Source: Calditrichota bacterium (GTDB lineage: Bacteria > Zhuqueibacterota > Zhuqueibacteria > JANLFK01 > Oleimicrobiaceae). From it: a stretch of 64,000 bases of DNA. Location of the stretch: NCBI GenBank assembly GCA_014359355.1, contig JACIZP010000177.1, positions 662 through 64,661 of the forward strand, given 5' to 3'. The translations under genes were made by a program, and so were the position numbers. Shown one piece after another: positions 7,837 through 41,148 of the stretch; position 1 is the stretch's first letter; every line of letters begins with the position of its first letter. The notes beneath the pieces are model-generated. The model ran no database searches, was not told the DNA's origin, and saw nothing but the letters and a program-made list of their open reading frames with translations.

Positions 7837-8883
7837 TCAGAACTTGAGGGTAATGCTAAGTTGCTGCGTGTTGCCCAGTATCTGGTAGTCCGTGTAGGCA
7901 TAGTCCAAAGTCAGGTCCAACCCAGCCACCGCATAGTGCAAGCCGACACCTGCTGCATAACTGGAGGTGTTGTAGGTCTCGTACTCATCGTGCGCCAGCA
8001 CCACACCACGGTAGCCGCCTCGCAAGGCGATGATGTTGTTCCACACGTACTCCACGCCAAAGTTAGACCGCAAGAGCGAGTCGTTGGTATCGGTCGCATC
8101 GGCATAGACGGTGACCTCATTGGACTCACTCTTAGCCAGTTGGCCGTCTACTCCCACCAGACTGGAGGAGATGCCCATGCGGAAGATCATGGGCAGGGGC
8201 CAAACCTCGGTGCTCAGGTCAGCATAACGCGTAGGGTTGCCGGTGTACTCTGGCCAACGCGTGTGGCTGACACGCAGGTCTGGGCCGGAAAGCCGCATAT
8301 TGCCCCCGAAATTGGAAAGACTCATGGCCAATTTCATCCCCAGCAGTCCGGTGTCCAGGAGCGAGCCGAGGTCGACCGCGATCGTGCGCGCCTTCTCCCG
8401 GTAAATCCCCTCCTGGATGAACTTGGCGGTGATGCCCAAGCTCAAGCGATCCGTCATGTAGCGCGCAAAGGTCAGCCCCACGGCGTAGTTACTCAGGCTG
8501 TAGAACGCGCCGGTTCCCTGCGGCATGTCCACTGTGGTGATTTCGATGTCGTCGGAGGTCATGTAGGTGATGCCCACGCCGACGGTGCTCCCTGCACCCA
8601 GTGGATAGGCCAGCCCCAAGAAGTTGTGCGACAGGCCCGCATACATCGAGGAGTAGGAGAAAAAAGCGGACAAGCGGTCCACTGCCGCCACGGCCGCCGG
8701 GTTCCAGTACAAGCCGGTAATTCCCGGCGCTGCCGTACCCGACTCACCGAGCGCTGCCGCCCGGGCGCCGACCCCCACCTTGAGGAACTGCGCGGCGCAG
8801 GTGCCCACGCGTGAGTTCTCCTGTGCCCACGAGGTCAGCACCCAGACCGTCGCGACCAGAAGCACTATGGTTAACTTTCTCAT
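7837..8883 (-). CDS. Outer-membrane beta-barrel protein, PorV/FadL-like (candidate T9SS shuttle protein)
   Basis: 348 aa; signal peptide (VATVWVLTSWAQE); 'GARAAALGESGTAAPGITGLYWNPAAVA' matches the G-x-R-A-x-A-x-G-x-A...NPA motif of FadL/PorV-family barrels; alternating beta-strand pattern to C-terminal F; AAGGAGG RBS. Confidence 0.45.
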   Translation of the reverse strand: MRKLTIVLLVATVWVLTSWAQENSRVGTCAAQFLKVGVGARAAALGESGTAAPGITGLYWNPAAVAAVDRLSAFFSYSSMYAGLSHNFLGLAYPLGAGSTVGVGITYMTSDDIEITTVDMPQGTGAFYSLSNYAVGLTFARYMTDRLSLGITAKFIQEGIYREKARTIAVDLGSLLDTGLLGMKLAMSLSNFGGNMRLSGPDLRVSHTRWPEYTGNPTRYADLSTEVWPLPMIFRMGISSSLVGVDGQLAKSESNEVTVYADATDTNDSLLRSNFGVEYVWNNIIALRGGYRGVVLAHDEYETYNTSSYAAGVGLHYAVAGLDLTLDYAYTDYQILGNTQQLSITLKF

Positions 8884-8946
8884 GATTGGCTCCTTCCGCT
8901 TTCATCCAGTGGCGTGACTGCCACCCTGATGACTTCCGGACCAGAA

Positions 8947-11900
8947 CTACCGCAGTATCGCAAATTTGCCTACCTGGGTTTGCCCATTGGGCGTCTCCAC
9001 CACGTAGAGGTACATGCCGTAGGCCACCTCCTGCTGGTTGAAGCTCAGCATGTTCCAGTAGGTCCAGCTCTGCGTCTCATGCTCGTGGTGAAGGGTATAC
9101 ACCCGCTCTCCGGTAATGGTGTAGATGTGGATGTCGCACTTGTTGGGCAGGTTGGTGAATTGAATCTGCCGCTGGTTGGGGTCAAGCTCCCATTGCGCGG
9201 AGATGATGTACGGATTGGGCACCACGCGCACCTTCTTCAGGTCGGCCTTCTCAGCTTCCCGCACCACATAGCGGCTGGTGTTGAGGCGGAACTTGTCCCG
9301 CTTGCCCACAAAGGGCTTGCCCGAGATGATGCGCAGCACATCGCCAGTCTGCGGGGCCACTCCAGTATCCACCTTCGTGTACACCCACTGCCCATTCACC
9401 AGGGTACTGTCGATGCGCGGAGGCGGAGCCGAAAGCTTGAATGTCCAGGTAAACTTGGCCGGCTTGCCTGTCTCCACCACCTCGCGCAGTTTGAGCTCGT
9501 CACCGCTGGTCCAGGTCGCTTTCATTTGGGGCGTGGTATCCGCTGGGTTTGCGGTGAAGTGACCAAAAGCCGCCTTCTTGTTGAGCGTCAAGTTCCAGAT
9601 CTCAAAAGGCGTAATGTAGGTGGCCGGCTGAAAGGCCGTGTCTGGCTCGCTTACAAACCTAAACTCATAGTCAAAGGGAAAGTCGCCGGCTGGAGTGCCC
9701 GTGACCTGCCAGTTGCAGGGCGACTCCGTGCCGCGCTGCCCCCGGTACCAGTAGGTCGAGTCGGGGTCAAGGCTCACGGTGCTGAAGCGCTCCACCACCG
9801 TGAGCTGCAGGCCATCGAAGATCGGCCCCTCAGCAGAGGCACCCAGTGGACCGTTGTCCACCACCTGCTGACCTGTCGCCTCGTCCAGGACGTCGTAGTA
9901 CTTCACCCCCGGCTTTGCGTCGTCGATGGTAATCAGGTACGAGTGTCCAGTCACCGCGAACTGGTCAAAGATTCTGGCAGTGAGCGTGTTGCCGGTGTAC
10001 GCACCAGGCAGAGCCTCCACTGCGATGGTCGGCGCCACGTAGTTGCTAGGCGTAGGTCCAGGGGTGACCTCCACCAGGTTCGGCGCGGCCTGCGGGTTTA
10101 CCCCTTTGGCGCACTCTAACGAGTTCAGGTCCGCCCACCCGGCTAAAGCTAACGAGTCGCCACGTGCCAGGCTAATGCCCCGGTCGTAGGAGGTCACACT
10201 GTACCAATAAGTGACACCGTTCTTCACGTTGTTGTCCGTCCACGAGTGCACCAGGCCGGTATTGTTGCCGAGGTTGAGGTGCGGGTAGTTGGGGTCAAGG
10301 CCACTCACGTTATCGTTGAGGTCAAATTGCGCCACCGGGATGAACCCCACCGCGTTGCCTAATCCGTCGCGAATGATCTCGCCCCACTGGTTGTTAGTCG
10401 GGTTGGAGGTCGTCCGATAGATACGGTACCCCTGAAAGTCCTTGGCGCCAGTCATCAAGTCGCGGCTCTCCTCGGCGCTGCGGTCCCAGTAGAGGGTCAC
10501 CTTGCCGTCGCCTGGCACCGCCGTGACGCGCGGCGGCGACGGCGGGTCGGCCCCCTGGTAGAACAGCTCGTACATGAACTGCGCATTGCGCGCGTTGAAC
10601 TTGTAGTCTTCGAAATCATCGCCGGCGATCATGCAGAAGCTGAAGGTGGTCGTGTCACCGGCCGGCAGGTCGAACGGCCCTGTGCTCATGATGAACACGC
10701 AGTCTAACCCGGTGGGGAACTTTTCCCTGATCAGCTCCGGCGAATCCAGGTGCGGATTCAGCTTGCCGCTGGGGTCCGGCCAGAAGTAGTTGTCCTGCTG
10801 CTCGATGGACAGGTTCGAGGTGTCGCCGCTCATCAATTTGTACTGCTCCAGCTCCTGCTTGTCCGGGGTCAACACGCCTGGCCGTTGCTCCCAGTTGAAC
10901 CAATGCCAGTCGGTGAGCCCGAGCTGTTGTCCCTCCGGAATATCGATGATCCCGTCCTTGTCCAAGTCCACACCACCCGCGGGAGCCTTCGGCGTCTCCA
11001 GCAGCTTGAGGCCAATATACACCTTCCATGCCGCCGGGTCAGCCACGCCGCTAAAGTCGCCCGTACCCCAACGATAGTCGTAGAAGTAGGCCGTGTTGTA
11101 CCGGTAGGTGGTGTCCTTCTTGGCGTCGTACTCCGAGATCAGGAACCCCATCCAGTCCATGCGGTCGTTGTAGGTAGTGGTGAGGTTGTACTCCGGGAGG
11201 TCCGCATCGATGTAAAAGCCGAAGTAGACTCCCTTGTAATCGTAGCCAATGCCCCGTGGGTCGATCGCCTTGCTATTGTTGATGATCCGGCACGGGAAGA
11301 AGATAAAGTCCTCGGCGTAGGACCTTCCATAGGTGTAGGCAGTCACCTCCACGTCGATGCCAGTGGCATAGCCTTGGTCCACGCGGCCGTCCGCCTCGGC
11401 ATAGCGCTGACCGACGTTGTTGAGGTCATAGTCGTTCATCACGAAAAAGACGTCTTTGTCGGAGGTGAATTTGCCGGGGATGATCTCCCCAGTTTTGGGG
11501 TCCCGCGCCCACGGCCCGGGCCAGATGCGATTGCCACTGGCATCCTTCGGCCAGGAGGCCTCGATTGTGCTGGTGGCGACAATGGGCAGGCCTTTGATGC
11601 TCGACGGCGCATTGGCCATCACGTCGCCCACGGTCACGTCGCCAGAATGAAGCTTGCCGTAGGAGCCGGCCTTGGGGCCCCAGTCTGCGGCCACGTTTCG
11701 CTCCGAAACCGTGGCCCCCATGCTCACCGTGTCACCTTTGACTGGGTCATAGCGCCGCGGTGCCCATGGTCCATCCGGAATGCCCAACATTGGGAAAAGG
11801 TCCGGCACGTAGGACCACCCCTTGTAGAAAAACGCCGGCACCGAGGGTCGGTAGTCCCATGTGGACAGACGGCCGTCGTTAAACACCGCATGCTGCACCT

Positions 11901-12045
11901 TGCCCACATCCAGTATGCCCACGGCGATGTCGCGGCTGTGCATGGGCTTCTGCAGACCCTTCTGCTGTTGCTGGTTCAGGTCCGCTGCCCAGGCCAAGGC
12001 GGCCAGTAGGACAATGCAGAGGAACACGAGCGCTTCTCGTCTCAT
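8947..12045 (-). CDS. Large secreted protein with T9SS C-terminal sorting domain (function unknown)
   Basis: 1033 aa; signal peptide (ALVFLCIVLLAALAWAA); C-terminus 'CDIHIYTITGERVYTLHHEHETQSWTYWN...GMYLYVVETPNGQTQVGKFAILR' is the type-A Por secretion CTD pattern; start moved to second ATG (AGGAGA RBS). Confidence 0.6.
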   Translation of the reverse strand: MRREALVFLCIVLLAALAWAADLNQQQQKGLQKPMHSRDIAVGILDVGKVQHAVFNDGRLSTWDYRPSVPAFFYKGWSYVPDLFPMLGIPDGPWAPRRYDPVKGDTVSMGATVSERNVAADWGPKAGSYGKLHSGDVTVGDVMANAPSSIKGLPIVATSTIEASWPKDASGNRIWPGPWARDPKTGEIIPGKFTSDKDVFFVMNDYDLNNVGQRYAEADGRVDQGYATGIDVEVTAYTYGRSYAEDFIFFPCRIINNSKAIDPRGIGYDYKGVYFGFYIDADLPEYNLTTTYNDRMDWMGFLISEYDAKKDTTYRYNTAYFYDYRWGTGDFSGVADPAAWKVYIGLKLLETPKAPAGGVDLDKDGIIDIPEGQQLGLTDWHWFNWEQRPGVLTPDKQELEQYKLMSGDTSNLSIEQQDNYFWPDPSGKLNPHLDSPELIREKFPTGLDCVFIMSTGPFDLPAGDTTTFSFCMIAGDDFEDYKFNARNAQFMYELFYQGADPPSPPRVTAVPGDGKVTLYWDRSAEESRDLMTGAKDFQGYRIYRTTSNPTNNQWGEIIRDGLGNAVGFIPVAQFDLNDNVSGLDPNYPHLNLGNNTGLVHSWTDNNVKNGVTYWYSVTSYDRGISLARGDSLALAGWADLNSLECAKGVNPQAAPNLVEVTPGPTPSNYVAPTIAVEALPGAYTGNTLTARIFDQFAVTGHSYLITIDDAKPGVKYYDVLDEATGQQVVDNGPLGASAEGPIFDGLQLTVVERFSTVSLDPDSTYWYRGQRGTESPCNWQVTGTPAGDFPFDYEFRFVSEPDTAFQPATYITPFEIWNLTLNKKAAFGHFTANPADTTPQMKATWTSGDELKLREVVETGKPAKFTWTFKLSAPPPRIDSTLVNGQWVYTKVDTGVAPQTGDVLRIISGKPFVGKRDKFRLNTSRYVVREAEKADLKKVRVVPNPYIISAQWELDPNQRQIQFTNLPNKCDIHIYTITGERVYTLHHEHETQSWTYWNMLSFNQQEVAYGMYLYVVETPNGQTQVGKFAILR

Positions 12046-12090
12046 GGTCATTCTCCTGGGGTAGAGTCTACGGTTACCTTTCCTGAGCTG

Positions 12091-15000
12091 CTACATCTCC
12101 AGGCGCAGGCCCAGGTCGATGCGCCGCCGCTCGCCGTACCAGTGCGGGTGGTCATACTGCGTGCTGTACGCCGTACGGCTCATGGTCGGGCCGGGATCGG
12201 TCGGGCTGCCGGTCTCCGAATACACGGTGAGCACGTTCTTGCGGTCCAGGATGTTCCACACTCGTGCCACCAACGCGGCGCGCAGACGCCCGAACAGCAC
12301 AAAGTCCCGGCGGAACACCCCATCAAGCGTCATGCGCCACGGTCGCCGCGCGGTGTTAGGCTCCAGCGCCTGGCCGCCCACCGTCGGCGTGTAGGGGTAA
12401 CCACTGGAGCCGCGGAAGATAAACTGCAGCGTCGTGCGCTCAAACGGCCGCACACCAAAGATCTTCGGGCCTTGCCCTCTTCCCAAAGCGTAGCCAGCGT
12501 TGATGTCGATGACGTGGGTCTGATCCCATGGCATCAGGTACTCCTTCTTCGGCCGGTTCTCCTCGGTGTCACTGTCCCAGTACCCGGCCCAGGAGTAATA
12601 CTTGTTCGCCTTGGCCACAGAGTAAGTGTACTCCAAGGTACCGAAGTAGTTGTCACTGAAGCGCTTCTCCAAGCTGATGTCGATTCCCTTGGAGCTGCCA
12701 AAGTCGCTGTTGTGGATAATCGAGTAGCTGTAGAGCCCTAAGCTGTCCGGGTCAAAGCCGGTGATGCGGTAGCTCCCTGGGTCGCCGTTGTTCTCCTTGG
12801 CCCATGCCGCCACGCTCAGCTTCCAATTGTCGCCAATCTGCTGATCCACGCCCAGTTCATAGGCCTCAGTGCGCGCCGCATCCATATTGGCCCAGCCGAA
12901 CAACGGTAGGGGCGAGTTCAGGTTAAGGGTCTGGTTGGTGTACAGGTCCCGGTAGTCCGGCACCTGGAAGAAGTGGCCATAGGCAAAATGGAAGGTGGCC
13001 CGATCGGTGATCGGATGGCCAATGCCCAAACGAGGGCTCCACTGCCACTTCTTCCTCCCCGTCTGCACCTGCGAGGTGGGATCGTTCCAGTTTTCCCACG
13101 CCCGCCCTTTGGAATCGGCAAAGTCGAAGCGGATTCCGGCGTTGACGATGAGGTTTTCGAACTCCATTTTGTCCTGAATGTACGCTGAAATCTCCACGGG
13201 ATGGGTGTGGTAGTACTCCACATACGGGTTGGCAAGGTAGGGGTGCTGGAGTTCCAGGAAGAACAGGCCTCCGGATTCGCCACCTGCCAGCTTGCCAAGT
13301 AGGCTGTTCTTGTCAAAGCCGAAGGTCTTGTACTCGCCGCCAATCTTCACCTGGTGGCTGCGGTGCGCCTGCCAGGTGAGGCTGCCGGAGAGCTCGAAAT
13401 CCTGCTGGAAATTCCGCGTCCAGTACTGCGTAGTGTAACCGTAGTACACGTAGCGCGGCACCTGCACGCCATGTTCGGTGATGGTATCTACCCGGACGAA
13501 GGTAAGGTCGCACGCAAAACCACCGGTGGAAGTCCTGTCCGGGTATTCCTGTGGGGTCACCGGCCATTCGCGGGCGATCTGCTGGCGCCGGGCCTCGATC
13601 TCCGCATCGGTGGGCTTGCGACCGTTTTCCTTCTCGAACTGCTCGATCCACGTCTCGAGAAATGCATCCCTGAAGAGCTCCGAGTGGCCTGCGGTCAACT
13701 CGTGGCCATCCGGACCATACACGCGATAGCGGCGATGCTTCCAGAAACGTGAGCCGCGCAGCTCGTAAAAGAGCTTGGGGCTCACCTGGTGCGTCCAGAT
13801 CAGACCTTGCTGCTCAGTCTGGTCGGTGACGATGTGGATGCCCTGCTCGGCAAAGCGCCAGAAGTCGTCGAAGTAGCGGAACCGCCGCTGCGTCTGCCGG
13901 TGGGTGTAGACCAACTTCATGCTGGGGTTGATCCGCCAGGAGAGCTTGCCGGCAAAGTCATAGTCGGAGTTGAAGCCAAAAGCCATCCAGCCGGCAGTGT
14001 CGTCCCAACGAATCAGGTCGTTGATGCCGTCACCTTCGCCTGCGTCCTTGGTGTTCGGCTTGCGGTCCTCTCCCCAGTCGGCTTTCCAGGACCACGCCTT
14101 CCGCCAGGCGCCGGTGGCCCAGTGCCGCATCACATCGCCGACGTAGCGGTAGGTGCTGTTGTTGCGCAACTTGTTGATGTCGGTTACTTCCGTGATGATC
14201 CCTGCGTCGATCTGCTCCTGGATCTTCTTGTAGCGAGGATCCTCGGGATGGTCCAGGAGCCAATTGAGCGGTGTCGGGTCGTAAGTGTACTGGTCGTACT
14301 CCAGCACCGTGTACTTGCGGTAGCCCTGTGAGCCAGAAAGGAAGAAGCTCAGTCCCTTAACAAACGGCACCGGGCCGCCAAAGGAGCCGATGACCTGGTG
14401 GGCGTTGCGCAGGTCGTCGCTCTTGGAGCCCAGCCAGCCCGCCACCTCGCCGCTGGTCACCTCCGCCATGCCGGAGTAGTAGTCGCGCCCCTCTTTGGTG
14501 ACGATGTTGACCACCGCCGATTGCGCCTCGCCGTACTCCGCGTCAAAGTTGCCGGTGATGACCGTCAGCTCATCGATGGCCTCCCGGTTGACCGTGGTCC
14601 CCATGCCGGCGTAGATGGCATCTTCCACGTACATCCCGTCCACCATGTAGGCGATCTGGCCACTTCTGCCGCCGCGCACGTGGGTTTGGTCAAGGCCGCG
14701 CGCCTCAAAGCCGGCGATCTTGTTCTGGTAGCCTTCCATGACGGTGATACCCGACTGCAGGGTCATGATGTCCTGCACCGAGCGCACGGGCATGTTGGTG
14801 ATCATCTCCGCCGTGACCGTGGTGCGCTTGGTGGTGACCGAAGGCTCGATGAGCGGCCGCTCTGCTGTCACCTCCACGGCCTTGCCCAAGTCGATCACCG
14901 TGGGGCTGAGCTCAAAGTTGATCTTAGTGGTCAGGTCAACGCTCACCCGCACACCGGTAACCGTCTCCCGCTGATAGCCGATCATGGAAGCCGTTACCCG

Positions 15001-15225
15001 ATAGACGCCAGGCCGCACGTTGATGATGAAGTAGTAGCCGTCAGCGTCGGTTGCTGCCCCCATCTTCGTGCCCTCGATGAACACGTTGGCACCGGGCAGG
15101 GGTTGGCCCGTTTCCTTGTCCTTTACGAACCCGGCGAGCTTGCCTGTGGTGCCAGCAAACAGCGTCACCGGCACTGCCAGCACCAGGGCGAGAGCCAGGG
15201 CCAGGACTACCTGTGCGCGTTTCAC
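12091..15225 (-). CDS. TonB-dependent receptor, SusC/RagA-like (CarbopepD_reg + plug + barrel)
   Basis: GTG start 15225 preceded by AGGAGG RBS; signal peptide; 'GKLAGFVKDKETGQPLPGANVF...DGYYFI' carboxypeptidase-regulatory-like domain; TonB plug (ITGNFDAEYGEAQSAVVNIVTKEG); ~1045 aa typical of SusC-like receptors; C-terminal residue is M rather than the usual F. Confidence 0.75.
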   Translation of the reverse strand: MKRAQVVLALALALVLAVPVTLFAGTTGKLAGFVKDKETGQPLPGANVFIEGTKMGAATDADGYYFIINVRPGVYRVTASMIGYQRETVTGVRVSVDLTTKINFELSPTVIDLGKAVEVTAERPLIEPSVTTKRTTVTAEMITNMPVRSVQDIMTLQSGITVMEGYQNKIAGFEARGLDQTHVRGGRSGQIAYMVDGMYVEDAIYAGMGTTVNREAIDELTVITGNFDAEYGEAQSAVVNIVTKEGRDYYSGMAEVTSGEVAGWLGSKSDDLRNAHQVIGSFGGPVPFVKGLSFFLSGSQGYRKYTVLEYDQYTYDPTPLNWLLDHPEDPRYKKIQEQIDAGIITEVTDINKLRNNSTYRYVGDVMRHWATGAWRKAWSWKADWGEDRKPNTKDAGEGDGINDLIRWDDTAGWMAFGFNSDYDFAGKLSWRINPSMKLVYTHRQTQRRFRYFDDFWRFAEQGIHIVTDQTEQQGLIWTHQVSPKLFYELRGSRFWKHRRYRVYGPDGHELTAGHSELFRDAFLETWIEQFEKENGRKPTDAEIEARRQQIAREWPVTPQEYPDRTSTGGFACDLTFVRVDTITEHGVQVPRYVYYGYTTQYWTRNFQQDFELSGSLTWQAHRSHQVKIGGEYKTFGFDKNSLLGKLAGGESGGLFFLELQHPYLANPYVEYYHTHPVEISAYIQDKMEFENLIVNAGIRFDFADSKGRAWENWNDPTSQVQTGRKKWQWSPRLGIGHPITDRATFHFAYGHFFQVPDYRDLYTNQTLNLNSPLPLFGWANMDAARTEAYELGVDQQIGDNWKLSVAAWAKENNGDPGSYRITGFDPDSLGLYSYSIIHNSDFGSSKGIDISLEKRFSDNYFGTLEYTYSVAKANKYYSWAGYWDSDTEENRPKKEYLMPWDQTHVIDINAGYALGRGQGPKIFGVRPFERTTLQFIFRGSSGYPYTPTVGGQALEPNTARRPWRMTLDGVFRRDFVLFGRLRAALVARVWNILDRKNVLTVYSETGSPTDPGPTMSRTAYSTQYDHPHWYGERRRIDLGLRLEM

Positions 15226-15254
15226 TGCCGCGGCCTCCTCTGTTTGGTGAAAAA

Positions 15255-15270
15255 AAAAGTTGCAACTTTT
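15255..15270. promoter_or_regulatory. Perfect 16-bp palindrome AAAAGTTGCAACTTTT in the TBDR leader (candidate operator)
   Basis: Self-complementary sequence 15-30 nt upstream of the receptor RBS; a second half-site copy GAAAAGTTGCAATTCC lies at 15476-15491 next to a putative -35. Confidence 0.4.
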
Positions 15271-15300
15271 TCCCCATCTGCTGCGTCTTAAAGGTGTGCC

Positions 15301-15358
15301 AAAACAAAAAGGGCGGTCCTCTCCCCTGGATCCTTGCGCGGATTTCGGGAGACCGCCC
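15301..15358 (-). terminator. Strong intrinsic terminator/attenuator hairpin inside the TBDR upstream region
   Basis: Minus strand: GGGCGGTCTCCC-20 nt loop-GGGGAGAGGACCGCCC followed by TTTTTGTTTT; lies between a sigma70-like promoter (15444-15471) and the receptor start, or alternatively terminates the upstream operon ending at 15605. Confidence 0.55.
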
Positions 15359-15443
15359 CCTGGCTTCTGGCACAACGGGCTATTGGCATGGGTCTGGCAG
15401 CTCCTGCTAATAGCCTTTTCTTTTCTGGGGGTTTCTATGCCGT

Positions 15444-15471
15444 AAAATAATGAATCCGCCCCAGTTTGTCA
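15444..15471 (-). promoter_or_regulatory. Sigma70-like promoter (TTGACA-16-TATTTT) reading toward the TBDR operon
   Basis: Minus-strand TTGACA (15471..15466), 16-nt spacer, TATTTT (15449..15444) in an AT-rich island. Confidence 0.35.
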
Positions 15472-15604
15472 AGAGAAAAGTTGCAATTCCGCGGCAGAGA
15501 GACAAGAAAAAAAGTCGACTTAAGGCAAGCTTGTGGGGGAAGGAGCGCCGGCGGGGATTTCGGGCGGAGTTTCGCTGAGGGCAAGCCCGCGCTTTAGCCA
15601 GGGG

Positions 15605-16168
15605 TTAAGCGCCATCAGTCTTTGCGCCTTCCATGCGTGCCCCCTCCAGGTTTGCATGTGCCAGGTGTGCACCGCGCAGGTCGGTGTCGGACAGGTCAGC
15701 CCCCGTCAAGTCCGCGCGCTCCAGGTGAGCACCCCGCAGGATGGCACCTGCCAAGTTCGCCCCCTTGAGGTTGGCGCGCTTCAGCCGTGCGTCGGTCAGG
15801 TTCGCGCCGCGCAGGTTCGCCCTGGCAAGGTGCGCCCCGAACAGAGCGCAGGCAACCATTTCTGCCCTGGCAGCCGACGCCCCCTCCAAGTTCGTGTCTT
15901 GTAGGTTCGTCTCCACCAGCACGGCACCGTCCAGGCGAGCCCGGCTGAGGTTAGCGCCAAACAGGAAGGCCCGCGTGAGATTGGCACCGCTGAGGTTGGC
16001 TCGTTCGAGGTTGGCATTCTGCAGGTGGGCATCGCTGAGGTCAGCATTGCGGAGGTCCAGGCCCCGCAAGTCTTCGTAAGACAAGTCCGCTTCTCGGAGA
16101 TCAAGGCCGGCAAGTGACTCGCCCTGTCGGGCGCGCGCCAGGATCTCCTCTCGGGTCAAACGTGCCAT
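15605..16168 (-). CDS. Pentapeptide-repeat protein
   Basis: 187 aa made almost entirely of A(D/N)LxG(A)xL quintets ([38 protein letters not shown]...). Confidence 0.8.
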
Positions 16169-41118: not shown

Positions 41119-41148
41119 GGCACTCTGCAGAGTGCCTTTTCTGTTTTT
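41119..41148 (+). terminator. Rho-independent terminator after BFN-nuclease gene
   Basis: GGCACTC-tgca-GAGTGCC hairpin followed by TTTTCTGTTTTT. Confidence 0.65.

Follow-up and report, generated by a model that had tools for sequence, protein, structure and literature searches.

A conserved two-hairpin module upstream of a TonB-dependent receptor operon in Zhuqueibacterota, proposed to be transcribed from both ends into an attenuated leader and an ECF-driven cis-antisense RNA

The spacer upstream of an Oar-like TonB-dependent receptor gene in a Calditrichota bacterium raises the question of why a promoter directed at the gene should be separated from it by a strong terminator. The sequence analyzed here (the window; 64,000 nucleotides of contig JACIZP010000177.1) had been interpreted in a first-pass annotation as containing a leader attenuator under riboswitch or antitermination control or, alternatively, the terminator of an upstream operon followed by a palindromic operator. 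The promoter, the GC-rich hairpin with its T-tract, and the palindrome were all found in the sequence where that annotation had placed them. Two details required correction: the TTGACA and TATTTT elements are indeed present on the minus strand, but are separated by 17 nt instead of 16 nt, and the palindrome is perfect but does not abut the ribosome-binding site, lying instead 14 nt upstream of the Shine-Dalgarno sequence. The operon downstream of the spacer consists of the following features.

15223 to 15240, minus strand: Shine-Dalgarno sequence (GAGGAGG, 15240-15234) and start codon (GTG, 15225-15223) of the receptor gene
12091 to 15225, minus strand: Oar-like TonB-dependent receptor with CarboxypepD_reg, Plug, and beta-barrel domains, the first gene of the operon
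8947 to 12051: T9SS-signal protein of 1034 aa (PorU-like), the second gene of the conserved three-gene operon
7837 to 8883: PorV/PorQ-family protein, the third gene of the conserved three-gene operon

The module precedes this same operon (Oar-like receptor, T9SS-type protein, PorV/PorQ) in 17 distinct KSB1/Zhuqueibacterota-like orthologous loci, and the genes located 5' of it differ among these loci (e.g., pentapeptide protein, divergent sigma-54 activator, NAD-glutamate dehydrogenase, M23 peptidase). Synteny with a varying upstream gene bears out the initial view of a structured, conserved element tied to the receptor gene, and does not support the alternative of an upstream-operon terminator next to an operator, given that the module tracks the receptor whatever the upstream gene and that the palindrome is not conserved. 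No extra copies of the module were detected by nhmmer in the window and 110 loci, making it single-copy per locus. Across the 17 loci, the only invariant columns belong to the A-tract, the U-tract, and a bipartite promoter motif, and the distance from the module to the receptor start extends to ~250-300 nt in three loci (L066, L070, and L071). The elements of the spacer in the window are listed below, with F referring to the receptor strand and R to the opposite strand.

15444 to 15472, minus strand: sigma-70-type F promoter (TTGACA 15472-15467, 17-nt spacer, TATTTT 15449-15444)
15301 to 15438, minus strand: predicted F RNA of ~137 nt (A-rich 5' tract, hairpin 1, hairpin 2, U-tract), with ends placed from the promoter and the U-tract
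15378 to 15415, plus strand: hairpin 1, predicted intrinsic terminator of the antisense RNA
15416 to 15426, plus strand: U-tract TTTTCTTTTCT located 3' of hairpin 1, equivalent to the conserved minus-strand A-tract, with columns invariant in the 17 loci
15295 to 15373, minus strand: hairpin 2, predicted intrinsic terminator/attenuator of the F transcript
15301 to 15310, minus strand: U-tract TTTTTGTTTT of the F terminator, with invariant T columns
15255 to 15270, no strand assigned: perfect palindrome AAAAGTTGCAACTTTT, of which only the part containing the ECF -35 element and T-stretch (one half) is conserved
15261 to 15287, plus strand: ECF-sigma-type promoter (-35 TGCAAC 15261-15266, TTTTT 15267-15271, 17-nt spacer, -10 CGTC 15284-15287)
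15261 to 15276, minus strand: weak sigma-54-like match TGGGGAAAAAGTTGCA directed toward the receptor, a possible but doubtful receptor promoter
15293 to 15426, plus strand: predicted R RNA of ~134 nt, a putative ECF-dependent cis-antisense sRNA with predicted ends

The F promoter matches the sigma-70 consensus at 10/12 positions, which alone is not rare (three comparable matches in 9 kb versus 1.9 expected). Despite the frequency of chance matches, the promoter is credible because it has a conserved counterpart: a near-consensus sigma-70 or sigma-54 promoter occurs on the F side of the module in 16 of the 17 orthologous loci, and lies directly 5' of the module in most of these 16. The promoters in relatives take the form of either TTGACA-17-TATTAT or a sigma-54 element (TGGCAT-N5-TTGCA). 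Sigma-54 F promoters were identified in L004, L009, L006, L012, L065, and L070, where 9-10 of the 11 positions of TGGCAC-N5-TTGCW are matched, a consensus whose GG and GC lie 10 nt from each other and that was not found at the F promoter of the window. Some of these sigma-54 promoters have inverted repeats upstream, and in two cases an NtrC-type activator gene is adjacent. Amongst the out-groups, which were inspected to see whether F is ancestral to the operon, a near-consensus F-type promoter (TTGACA-17-TATATT, 11/12) was present only in the Fidelibacterota loci L011 and L010, located 43 nt and 171 nt before the start codon, respectively, and the Melioribacter locus L018 has a weaker sigma-70 match (10/12). 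Transcription from the F promoter is predicted to start near 15438 and to yield an RNA that would serve either as the receptor operon's leader or as a leader RNA ending at the terminator. A 145-nt transcript spanning 15440-15296 folds with -59.0 kcal/mol (z = -4.4; none of 200 shuffles equally stable), and the architecture of the F RNA is the same in all 17 loci.

The terminator that the first-pass annotation had placed between the promoter and the receptor gene is well supported on the receptor strand, where hairpin 2 has a stable GC-rich stem followed by UUUUUGUUUU, with invariant U columns. The inner GC-rich stem occupies 15311-15360, with TTTTTGTTTT coming next at 15310-15301, and in the outer helix this U-tract and GGCAC pair with an upstream purine-rich arm (GUGCCAGAA), giving a long helix at ~15295-15373. 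Hairpin 2 is more stable on the minus strand than on the plus strand both in the window (-45.4 versus -38.9 kcal/mol) and when summed over the 17 loci (-433 versus -402 kcal/mol). A simple terminator scanner did not list hairpin 2, an omission attributed to its branched loop. In several relatives, A- and U-tracts flank this hairpin on both sides, as in bidirectional terminators. No terminator was detected between the stop codon of the pentapeptide gene (15605) and the module; therefore, hairpin 2 probably also ends transcripts of the upstream operon, and it may incidentally stop read-through from the upstream genes.

A second conserved hairpin, absent from the first-pass annotation, is flanked by the A-tract and has the properties of an intrinsic terminator on the plus strand: a stable stem followed by UUUUCUUUUCU, and strand-specific G.U pairs. 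Compensatory changes were observed in 9 of the 12 stem pairs of hairpin 1, and 94.1% of its cells are paired (versus 80.7% in shuffles). The sequence of hairpin 1 varies freely, and the type of mismatch that occurs is tolerated only on the strand opposite the receptor (16 G.U versus 1 A.C pairs when read on the plus strand); in the window, the hairpin folds with -22.6 kcal/mol on the plus strand and -15.4 kcal/mol on the minus strand. A strand-neutral count of wobbles favors the strand opposite the receptor for hairpin 1 (9 versus 19) and the receptor strand for hairpin 2 (31 versus 17), and these opposite biases differ by Fisher's test (p = 0.009), with counts that are not phylogenetically independent. 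The number of independent events behind the hairpin 1 bias is estimated at ~6-8, and the hairpin 2 bias is modest, with exceptions that include L009, which favors the opposite strand. Each hairpin is more stable on the strand where a U-tract comes next. Folding energy summed over the whole module favors neither strand (-763 versus -779 kcal/mol), and only the per-hairpin analysis is informative.

As an operator, the palindrome was rejected, since perfect 16-nt palindromes occur in the window at chance frequency (two versus 1.6 expected in shuffles) and neither L001 nor L063 retains the symmetry; the closest relatives, with 94% and 92% identity, have lost it as well as reading AAAAAGTTGCAGACTTT and AAAAAGTTGCAGGTATT at this position. 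A second copy of TTGCAACTTTT, missed in the earlier annotation, is located at 15476-15486 and is not conserved in relatives. The possibility that this 11-mer and its counterpart in the palindrome form a pair of regulator sites was discarded because neither L001 nor L063 preserves the copy lying upstream; this copy also forms no ECF or sigma-54 promoter.

The half of the palindrome that is conserved belongs to a bipartite promoter motif on the plus strand. The pattern TGMAAC-N16/17-CGT has a single site in the 64-kb window, at 15261-15287, and the motif (TGAAAC/TGCAAC-TTTT-N12/13-CGT(A/C/T)) is present in all 17 KSB1-type loci and in the partial locus L072, always opposite the receptor strand and with invariant ACG and GTT.C columns in the 17 loci. 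It is absent from the homologs in Ignavibacteria, Marinimicrobia, Rhodothermales, and Fidelibacterota. The distance between the motif and hairpin 2 is constant (29 nt from the U-tract to AAAAAG), and the distance between the motif and the ribosome-binding site is 22-33 nt, reaching up to ~300 nt in L066, L070, and L071. At the sequence level, the motif in the window (TGCAAC-TTTTT-N12-CGTC) matches the published ECF-sigma consensus (tgaAACntttt with CGTA/CGTC), including the T-stretch (PMC5758882). Since the motif is single in 64 kb, the ECF reading draws no support from a regulon or an autoregulated sigma operon, and a test of ten small ORFs in the window revealed no ECF sigma gene.

Two forward-directed interpretations of the same motif were rejected. 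As a sigma-54 promoter of the receptor, it has the -24 GG only in the window and in L001 (L063 has the GG of the TGGGGAAAAAGTTGCA site in a different register, and the remaining orthologs lack it), and the number of sigma-54-like matches in the window (10 versus 6 expected) is not above chance. As a sigma-70 promoter, it lacks a -10 element in the window, and its spacing to the ribosome-binding site varies. Read on the plus strand, the ECF-type promoter has a predicted start near 15293-15295, a position that coincides with the base of hairpin 2. The corresponding plus-strand sequence (15293-15428) folds with -61.7 kcal/mol (z = -3.9) into a long 5' hairpin and a terminator hairpin followed by a U-tract, and the predicted R RNA is complementary to almost the whole predicted F leader.

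Taken together, these data make it plausible, at a level that falls a little short of even confidence, that the spacer (15255-15472) is a KSB1/Zhuqueibacterota-specific two-hairpin module transcribed from both ends. One product would be an attenuated leader, and the other a cis-antisense sRNA driven by an ECF sigma factor and proposed to lower expression of the operon. From the promoter and terminator signals, we infer that both RNAs are made, with the ends given above. The F promoter (sigma-70, or sigma-54 in some relatives) would fire into the A-rich 5' end, hairpins 1 and 2, and the U-tract, and most F transcripts should end as a ~137-nt leader RNA. Only F transcripts that read through would reach the operon. 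The F promoter is taken to drive the operon because the receptor operon has no other convincing promoter: none is recognizable in the forward direction in the 22-33 nt that separate the motif from the ribosome-binding site. Against this, the window clade has the weak sigma-54-like site directed at the gene, and a weak sigma-70 promoter near the receptor could hide in some AT-rich relatives.

In the proposed mechanism, R transcription would start at the foot of hairpin 2 from the ECF promoter, run back through both hairpins, and end at hairpin 1 with the plus-strand U-tract, giving a ~134-nt sRNA that is a perfect complement of the F leader. Upon activation of the cognate ECF sigma factor (e.g., under envelope stress), R would lower expression of the outer-membrane operon, and could do so by colliding with or blocking read-through polymerases and by pairing with the leader in a duplex that is then cleaved. 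The sign of this regulation is proposed to be repression, in line with DonS-type antisense RNAs, which are divergent to susC homologs and affect them negatively (PMC7366714), and with RnaG, which is transcribed from a convergent promoter and attenuates icsA (PMC2879508). The complementarity between F and R ends ~70 nt upstream of the receptor start codon, a distance that excludes direct occlusion of the ribosome-binding site and means that a repressive effect of R is not guaranteed. The lack of a conserved single-stranded seed fits a cis-antisense rather than a trans-acting mode.

It is possible, but unlikely, that the two RNAs are instead trans-acting sRNAs (or an sRNA and an antisense sponge) that titrate each other, as SdsR and RyeA do, act on distant mRNAs through partial pairing, and merely lie beside a receptor gene with its own unrecognized promoter. 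Each RNA does look like a full sRNA gene (promoter, 5' structure, terminator, U-tract), and the ~250-300 nt separating the module from the receptor start in L066, L070, and L071 would suit such independence. In L004 and L009, moreover, the sigma-54 F promoter adjoins a divergent NtrC-type activator gene, an arrangement that we take to resemble LuxO-Qrr1 and GlrR-GlmY. However, trans-acting sRNAs would be expected to carry a seed, and no conserved unpaired stretch of the MicA/RybB type was found, nor any Rfam match to MicA or RybB. Predicted duplexes of the F or R RNA with the receptor translation-initiation region were shuffle-like (z from -2.2 to +1.5) and unrealistically long. The fact that synteny with the receptor and orientation toward it are strictly kept in 17 of 17 loci argues for action in cis, and the 22-33 nt interval has no recognizable forward promoter for separate receptor transcription.

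Antisense repression in cis is also preferred to the opposite sign, which is regarded as distinctly unlikely. According to this possibility, R would pair with the nascent leader (hairpin 1, then the 5' arm of hairpin 2) and block the terminator, such that expression of the operon requires simultaneous activity of the F promoter and of the ECF sigma factor. Such an AND gate would explain why a -45 kcal/mol terminator without a cis antiterminator stands between a consensus promoter and the operon. It would also account for the fixed position of the R start exactly at the foot of hairpin 2, from where R holds the full complement of the terminator. If correct, it would combine a nutritional signal (sigma-54/NtrC-type or sigma-70) with an envelope signal (ECF sigma), and would represent antitermination of a constitutive intrinsic terminator mediated by an antisense RNA. 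The natural precedents found here, DonS (PMC7366714) and RnaG (PMC2879508), act negatively, however, local folding of a hairpin is normally faster than bimolecular pairing, and convergent transcription would itself hinder read-through.

A leader attenuator controlled by a ligand or protein (riboswitch, T-box-like element, or leader peptide), with the palindrome either irrelevant or an operator, is considered very improbable, even though promoter, structured leader, intrinsic terminator, and gene follow each other in the classical order and TonB-dependent receptors are frequent riboswitch targets. The scan for cobalamin, TPP, and other riboswitches did not produce a covariance-model match: Rfam 15 gave none at the gathering score in the whole window, none on the two strands of 15150-15650 even at E <= 10, and none in 16 orthologous loci. 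Blocking the 3' arm of the terminator to expose an antiterminator cost the fold 8-32 kcal/mol of stability (the window being at 32 kcal/mol), and in 8 of the 17 loci no bases of the 5' arm then re-paired with the upstream leader. The 17-locus alignment contains no conserved unpaired aptamer core, loop, or bulge, and neither strand encodes a conserved leader peptide or small ORF in the 17 loci (longest ATG ORFs of 0-39 aa). The absence of a conserved small hydrophobic ORF on either strand of these loci likewise speaks against a type I toxin-antitoxin system. With no covariance-model match and no conserved alternative pairing, outcomes that the first-pass annotation itself had named as refuting, and with no unpaired core, the riboswitch or classical attenuator proposed there is not supported; the free variation of hairpin 1, with mismatches tolerated only on the other strand, and the chance frequency and poor conservation of the palindrome also weigh against it.

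Equally improbable is a passive DNA-level insulator, in which back-to-back terminators would guard against upstream read-through and antisense transcription and the promoter-like motifs would be unrelated or a transcription-factor site for a receptor promoter: the lack of a detected terminator from 15605 to the module and the A- and U-tracts that bracket hairpin 2 in several relatives are compatible with it, but the module is kept in L004, L009, and L002, in which a terminator of this kind is not needed for the divergent upstream gene, and neither the near-consensus promoter directly before the terminator in most of the 16 loci nor the invariant spacing, orientation, and distance of the bipartite motif is explained.

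If the convergent leader/antisense reading is correct, the module would represent a non-coding RNA family of the uncultured KSB1/Zhuqueibacterota lineage that is matched by no Rfam family, and no description of such a family was found in the literature searched. The FCB superphylum would then share, in compact cis-antisense form, the regulatory logic leading from an envelope-stress sigma factor through a small RNA to a major outer-membrane protein. Three features make the mirror-image design unusual: each RNA would start just outside the terminator of the other, the type of the sense promoter has changed between sigma-70 and sigma-54 in evolution, and the antisense ECF promoter is invariant. 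The module would lend itself to clean studies of convergent transcription and of antisense control, and would give access to the regulation of a widely conserved, uncharacterized operon (Oar-like receptor, PorU-like, PorV/PorQ). For annotation, the locus serves as a warning that the order promoter, terminator, gene before a TonB receptor need not indicate a riboswitch.

Amongst known systems, the sigma-E-dependent sRNAs MicA, RybB, and MicL of enterobacteria repress outer-membrane proteins in trans, relying on conserved 5' seeds and on Hfq. The proposed module is alike in logic, with an envelope-stress ECF sigma factor producing a short terminated sRNA that lowers abundant outer-membrane proteins, but R would be cis-encoded, has no conserved seed, and has no predicted pairing at translation initiation. 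SdsR and RyeA (SraC) of E. coli and Salmonella form a fully overlapping sRNA pair that is neither an mRNA leader nor linked to a downstream operon. Their resemblance to F and R lies in small RNAs on opposite strands of one short locus, one of them dependent on an alternative sigma factor, that are able to neutralize each other; there is no homology, and the module here is linked to a downstream operon. Countertranscript-driven attenuation is known from pT181, pIP501, and pCF10. In these systems and in RnaG/icsA, the antisense RNA induces a terminator that would otherwise not form, whereas the terminator described here seems constitutive, lies inside the complementary region, and has no competing fold. 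RnaG/icsA of Shigella nevertheless shares the convergent promoters, an antisense RNA directed against the leader, and an effect at the level of termination and/or interference, and icsA also encodes an outer-membrane protein (PMC2879508).

The antisense promoter itself is indistinguishable from the sigma-W/M/X/V-type promoters of Bacillus subtilis (TGAAAC/TGCAAC, T-stretch, 16-17-nt spacer, CGTA/CGTC; PMC5758882), the differences being that the host here is an uncultured bacterium of the FCB superphylum and that the promoter would drive a putative non-coding antisense RNA and not a protein gene. The DonS-type sRNAs of Bacteroides, which are PUL-associated, 78-128 nt long, and divergent to susC homologs, share with the predicted R RNA a similar size, a position directly upstream of and divergent to a SusC/Oar-type receptor gene, membership in the FCB superphylum, what would be an antisense relationship to the 5' part of the transcript, and an expected repressive effect (PMC7366714). 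R fits the DonS-like position, being divergent to and directly 5' of the receptor gene, and overlaps only the predicted untranslated leader, presumed to be continuous with the mRNA, ending ~70 nt before the start codon. In contrast to DonS, R has no Rfam relationship and is associated with an operon encoding a receptor/T9SS-type/PorV-PorQ trio instead of a SusC/SusD PUL, and it would be transcribed from an ECF-type promoter and mirror a complete terminated leader RNA.

The spacer between the stop codon of the pentapeptide-repeat gene (15605) and the GTG start codon of the receptor gene (15225) contains all of the features listed in the first-pass annotation, namely a promoter, a GC-rich hairpin, and a palindrome. 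The receptor-side promoter match (TTGACA-17-TATTTT, 15472-15444, minus strand) scores 10/12, and matches of this kind are not unusual (3 in 9 kb versus 1.9 expected). The GC-rich stem (15311-15360), followed by TTTTTGTTTT at 15310-15301, is the inner stem of a longer hairpin (hairpin 2, 15295-15373), and a further hairpin with an A-rich tract before it (hairpin 1, 15378-15415) was overlooked. For the predicted transcript 15440-15296, the folding energy is -59.0 kcal/mol (z = -4.4 versus dinucleotide shuffles). The perfect palindrome AAAAGTTGCAACTTTT occupies 15255-15270.

Downstream of the receptor (1044 aa; CarboxypepD_reg, Plug, and barrel domains, i.e., an 'Oar-like' TonB-dependent receptor) come a 1034-aa protein bearing a T9SS-type C-terminal signal and weak similarity to the PorU C-terminus, and then a PorV/PorQ-family protein. 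An exact-protein look-up of the receptor gave no match. The trio (7837-15225, minus strand) recurs in several lineages of the FCB superphylum and keeps its order in KSB1, Ignavibacteria, Marinimicrobia, Rhodothermales, and Fidelibacterota loci (downstream regions of L001-L062); such conservation points to a module for sorting or secretion at the outer membrane, not to a simple receptor for nutrients. The receptor start codon is GTG in the window (15223-15225) and TTG in most KSB1-type orthologs, where it lies 6-9 nt downstream of GGGAGG, a very strong Shine-Dalgarno sequence. A conserved AAC(C/T)AA(A/T)TCA stretch comes before the latter, and the conserved weak start codon and strong Shine-Dalgarno may reflect translational tuning of the receptor. 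The genes upstream on the same strand encode pentapeptide-repeat, STAS, MacB-type ABC, HlyD, and TolC-like proteins. No terminator-like hairpin is found between the pentapeptide-repeat stop and the leader promoter (15487-15604, minus strand), and the upstream efflux/STAS/pentapeptide transcripts probably run into the spacer element and end at hairpin 2.

Protein-anchored scans yielded 62 genomic and 48 metagenomic loci, the closest relatives being unclassified MAGs (92-94% identity) and the next tier (55-67% identity) being labelled candidate division KSB1, Zhuqueibacterota, or 'uncultured Cytophagia'. The same architecture lies upstream of the receptor in 17 distinct loci of the KSB1/Zhuqueibacterota-type group, in the order promoter, A-tract, hairpin 1, variable linker, hairpin 2, bipartite motif, and Shine-Dalgarno; the U-tract of hairpin 2 forms part of an extended helix, and the bipartite motif lies 29 nt beyond. 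An nhmmer profile recovers exactly one copy of this module per locus and no further copies elsewhere in the window, and the module is absent from the Ignavibacteria, Marinimicrobia, Rhodothermales, and Fidelibacterota homologs. The observation is real, and its element is both conserved and specific. Since the upstream gene varies among loci (pentapeptide protein, divergent sigma-54 activator/response regulator, NAD-glutamate dehydrogenase, M23 peptidase, and others), the module travels with the receptor and does not represent the tail end of the upstream operon.

Whole-module folding energies do not tell the two strands apart. The stem of hairpin 1 shows compensatory changes in 9/12 pairs, and its paired cells reach 94.1% versus 80.7% in column shuffles, a value attained by none of 500. 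Hairpin 1 favors the plus strand (16 G.U versus 1 A.C pairs; -22.6 versus -15.4 kcal/mol in the window; -356 versus -308 kcal/mol summed over the 17 loci), where it is followed by UUUUCUUUUCU, and the matching A-tract columns are invariant. Hairpin 2 favors the receptor strand (-45.4 versus -38.9 kcal/mol in the window; -433 versus -402 kcal/mol summed), on which its U-tract follows; this bias is modest and has exceptions (e.g., the related locus L009). A strand-neutral count of transition mismatches (hairpin 1, 9 versus 19; hairpin 2, 31 versus 17; Fisher p = 0.009) rests on counts that are not phylogenetically independent, those of hairpin 1 representing an estimated 6-8 independent events. 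Our reading is that the hairpins are predicted intrinsic terminators of opposite strands.

A near-consensus promoter faces the module in 16/17 loci, with the predicted start at or just before the A-tract in most; the exceptions, L005 and L013, have promoters 71 and 157 nt upstream, respectively. The sigma-70 version is TTGACA-17- with TATTTT, TATTAT, TATAAT, TATACT, or TATATT, while some loci carry a sigma-54 version (TGGCAT-N5-TTGCA/T, 9-10/11 positions) and two (L008 and L068) have both, overlapping. Because sigma-70, sigma-54, or both front the same module in different loci, the promoter type has been exchanged in evolution, with the module and the bipartite motif retained. At L004 and L009, the sigma-54 promoter adjoins a divergent gene for an NtrC-type activator (NtrC-family response regulator), with GTGCA...TGCAC inverted repeats between. 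Sigma-54-type relatives have one or two GTGCA-N6-TGCAC repeats 60-130 nt upstream, resembling enhancer-binding-protein sites, and a large NAD-glutamate dehydrogenase gene lies upstream at L006, L008, and L012, a hint of nitrogen control.

Regions with a sigma-54-type leader promoter and GTGCA-N6-TGCAC inverted repeats (locus:positions).
L004:3640-3800
L009:3640-3800
L006:620-745
L012:3575-3720
L008:3600-3730

In the window, a second exact copy of TTGCAACTTTT lies at 15476-15486 (minus strand), just upstream of the leader promoter -35 box (3 matches, including the two strands of the palindrome, versus 0.53 expected). The copy is not kept in the two closest relatives (L001 and L063), where the position is T-rich and UP-element-like, and it is perhaps what is left of the sigma-54 -12 element (TTGCA) present in relatives.

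Neither regulatory role first proposed for the leader is supported. The palindrome is a poor candidate for an operator, its symmetry being lost already in both closest relatives and perfect 16-nt palindromes occurring at chance frequency in the window (2 versus 1.6 in shuffles; the other is GCACTCTGCAGAGTGC, 41120-41135). The attenuator reading (riboswitch or antitermination) runs into the refuting results that the first-pass annotation itself named: no Rfam match turned up in the window at the gathering score, in the region with the cutoff relaxed to E <= 10, or in 16 related loci, and blocking the terminator 3' arm costs the leader fold 8-32 kcal/mol in stability (32 for the window), with no upstream partner at all for the 5'-arm nucleotides in 8/17 loci. 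Nucleotides invariant across the 17 aligned loci are confined to the tracts and promoter elements, and there is therefore no aptamer-like core; no conserved small ORF occurs on either strand.

Overlapping the palindrome is a bipartite motif that is invariant on the receptor strand in the 17 aligned loci, ACG-N16/17-(A)AAAGTT(T/G)C, and also present at the partial locus L072. On the opposite strand it reads TGAAAC (TGCAAC in the window clade), TTTT, a spacer totalling 16-17 nt, and CGT(A/C/T), and as a predicted promoter it fits the ECF sigma consensus of sigma-W/M/X/V ('-35 tgaAACntttt', '-10 CGTA/CGTC'; PMC5758882), which comes from another organism, B. subtilis.

Predicted promoter in the spacer.
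15261-15287, plus strand: ECF-type promoter motif, by match to consensus

The motif faces the hairpins, with the receptor behind it. Its distance is fixed to hairpin 2 and variable to the RBS (22-33 nt, up to ~300 nt in L066, L070, and L071), and it is therefore part of the hairpin module, not of the receptor translation start. TGMAAC-N16/17-CGT has a single site in the 64 kb, and thus no regulon supports the ECF-type promoter; no cognate sigma factor was found among the ten small window ORFs tested. In the three loci with the longer distance, an additional 130-300 nt separates module from RBS (L066:2185-2460, L070:2225-2500, L071:2350-2475). This insert, partly conserved between L066 and L070, which both begin TTTTTTTGACAGCGGAGCGAGCATGCTG, has no Rfam match and may supply either an additional promoter or a further structured element of the leader.

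These sequence features predict a pair of convergent transcription units that overlap almost completely.

Predicted transcription units.
~15438 to ~15301, minus strand: leader RNA, with sigma-70 promoter, A-rich 5' end, hairpin 1, and hairpin 2 terminator
~15293 to ~15426, plus strand: antisense RNA, with ECF-type promoter, hairpin 2', and hairpin 1' terminator

The antisense stretch (15293-15428) folds at -61.7 kcal/mol (z -3.9). We infer that the leader promoter is that of the operon and the module an inserted leader that would terminate most transcripts, because no convincing forward promoter exists between hairpin 2 and the RBS (the only candidate, a weak sigma-54-like match, loses its register in L063 and is missing from more distant orthologs) and because Fidelibacterota, a related phylum, have a near-consensus sigma-70 promoter (11/12) before the orthologous gene, 43 nt (L011) or 171 nt (L010) from the start codon. 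The plus-strand product would then be an ECF-controlled cis-antisense RNA; a cis mechanism is favored over trans since there is no conserved seed among the invariant positions and no predicted pairing to the receptor translation-initiation region. Repression could operate through transcriptional interference, with the ECF promoter sitting in the path of read-through polymerases, alongside duplex formation with the leader and cleavage. The opposite sign, in which the antisense RNA would sequester the terminator 5' arm and so cause antitermination, is a less likely alternative.

The best-supported reading of the sequence is a new lineage-specific variant of an antisense-controlled leader, in which a terminated sigma-70/sigma-54 leader RNA and an ECF-promoter-driven antisense sRNA would precede an Oar-like receptor/PorV-family operon. 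We favor repression of the operon by the antisense RNA by analogy with known systems. The sigma-E/MicA-RybB logic, a precedent for repression, is one such analogy. The others are the DonS-type RNAs, which are divergent to susC homologs (PMC7366714), and RnaG/icsA (PMC2879508).
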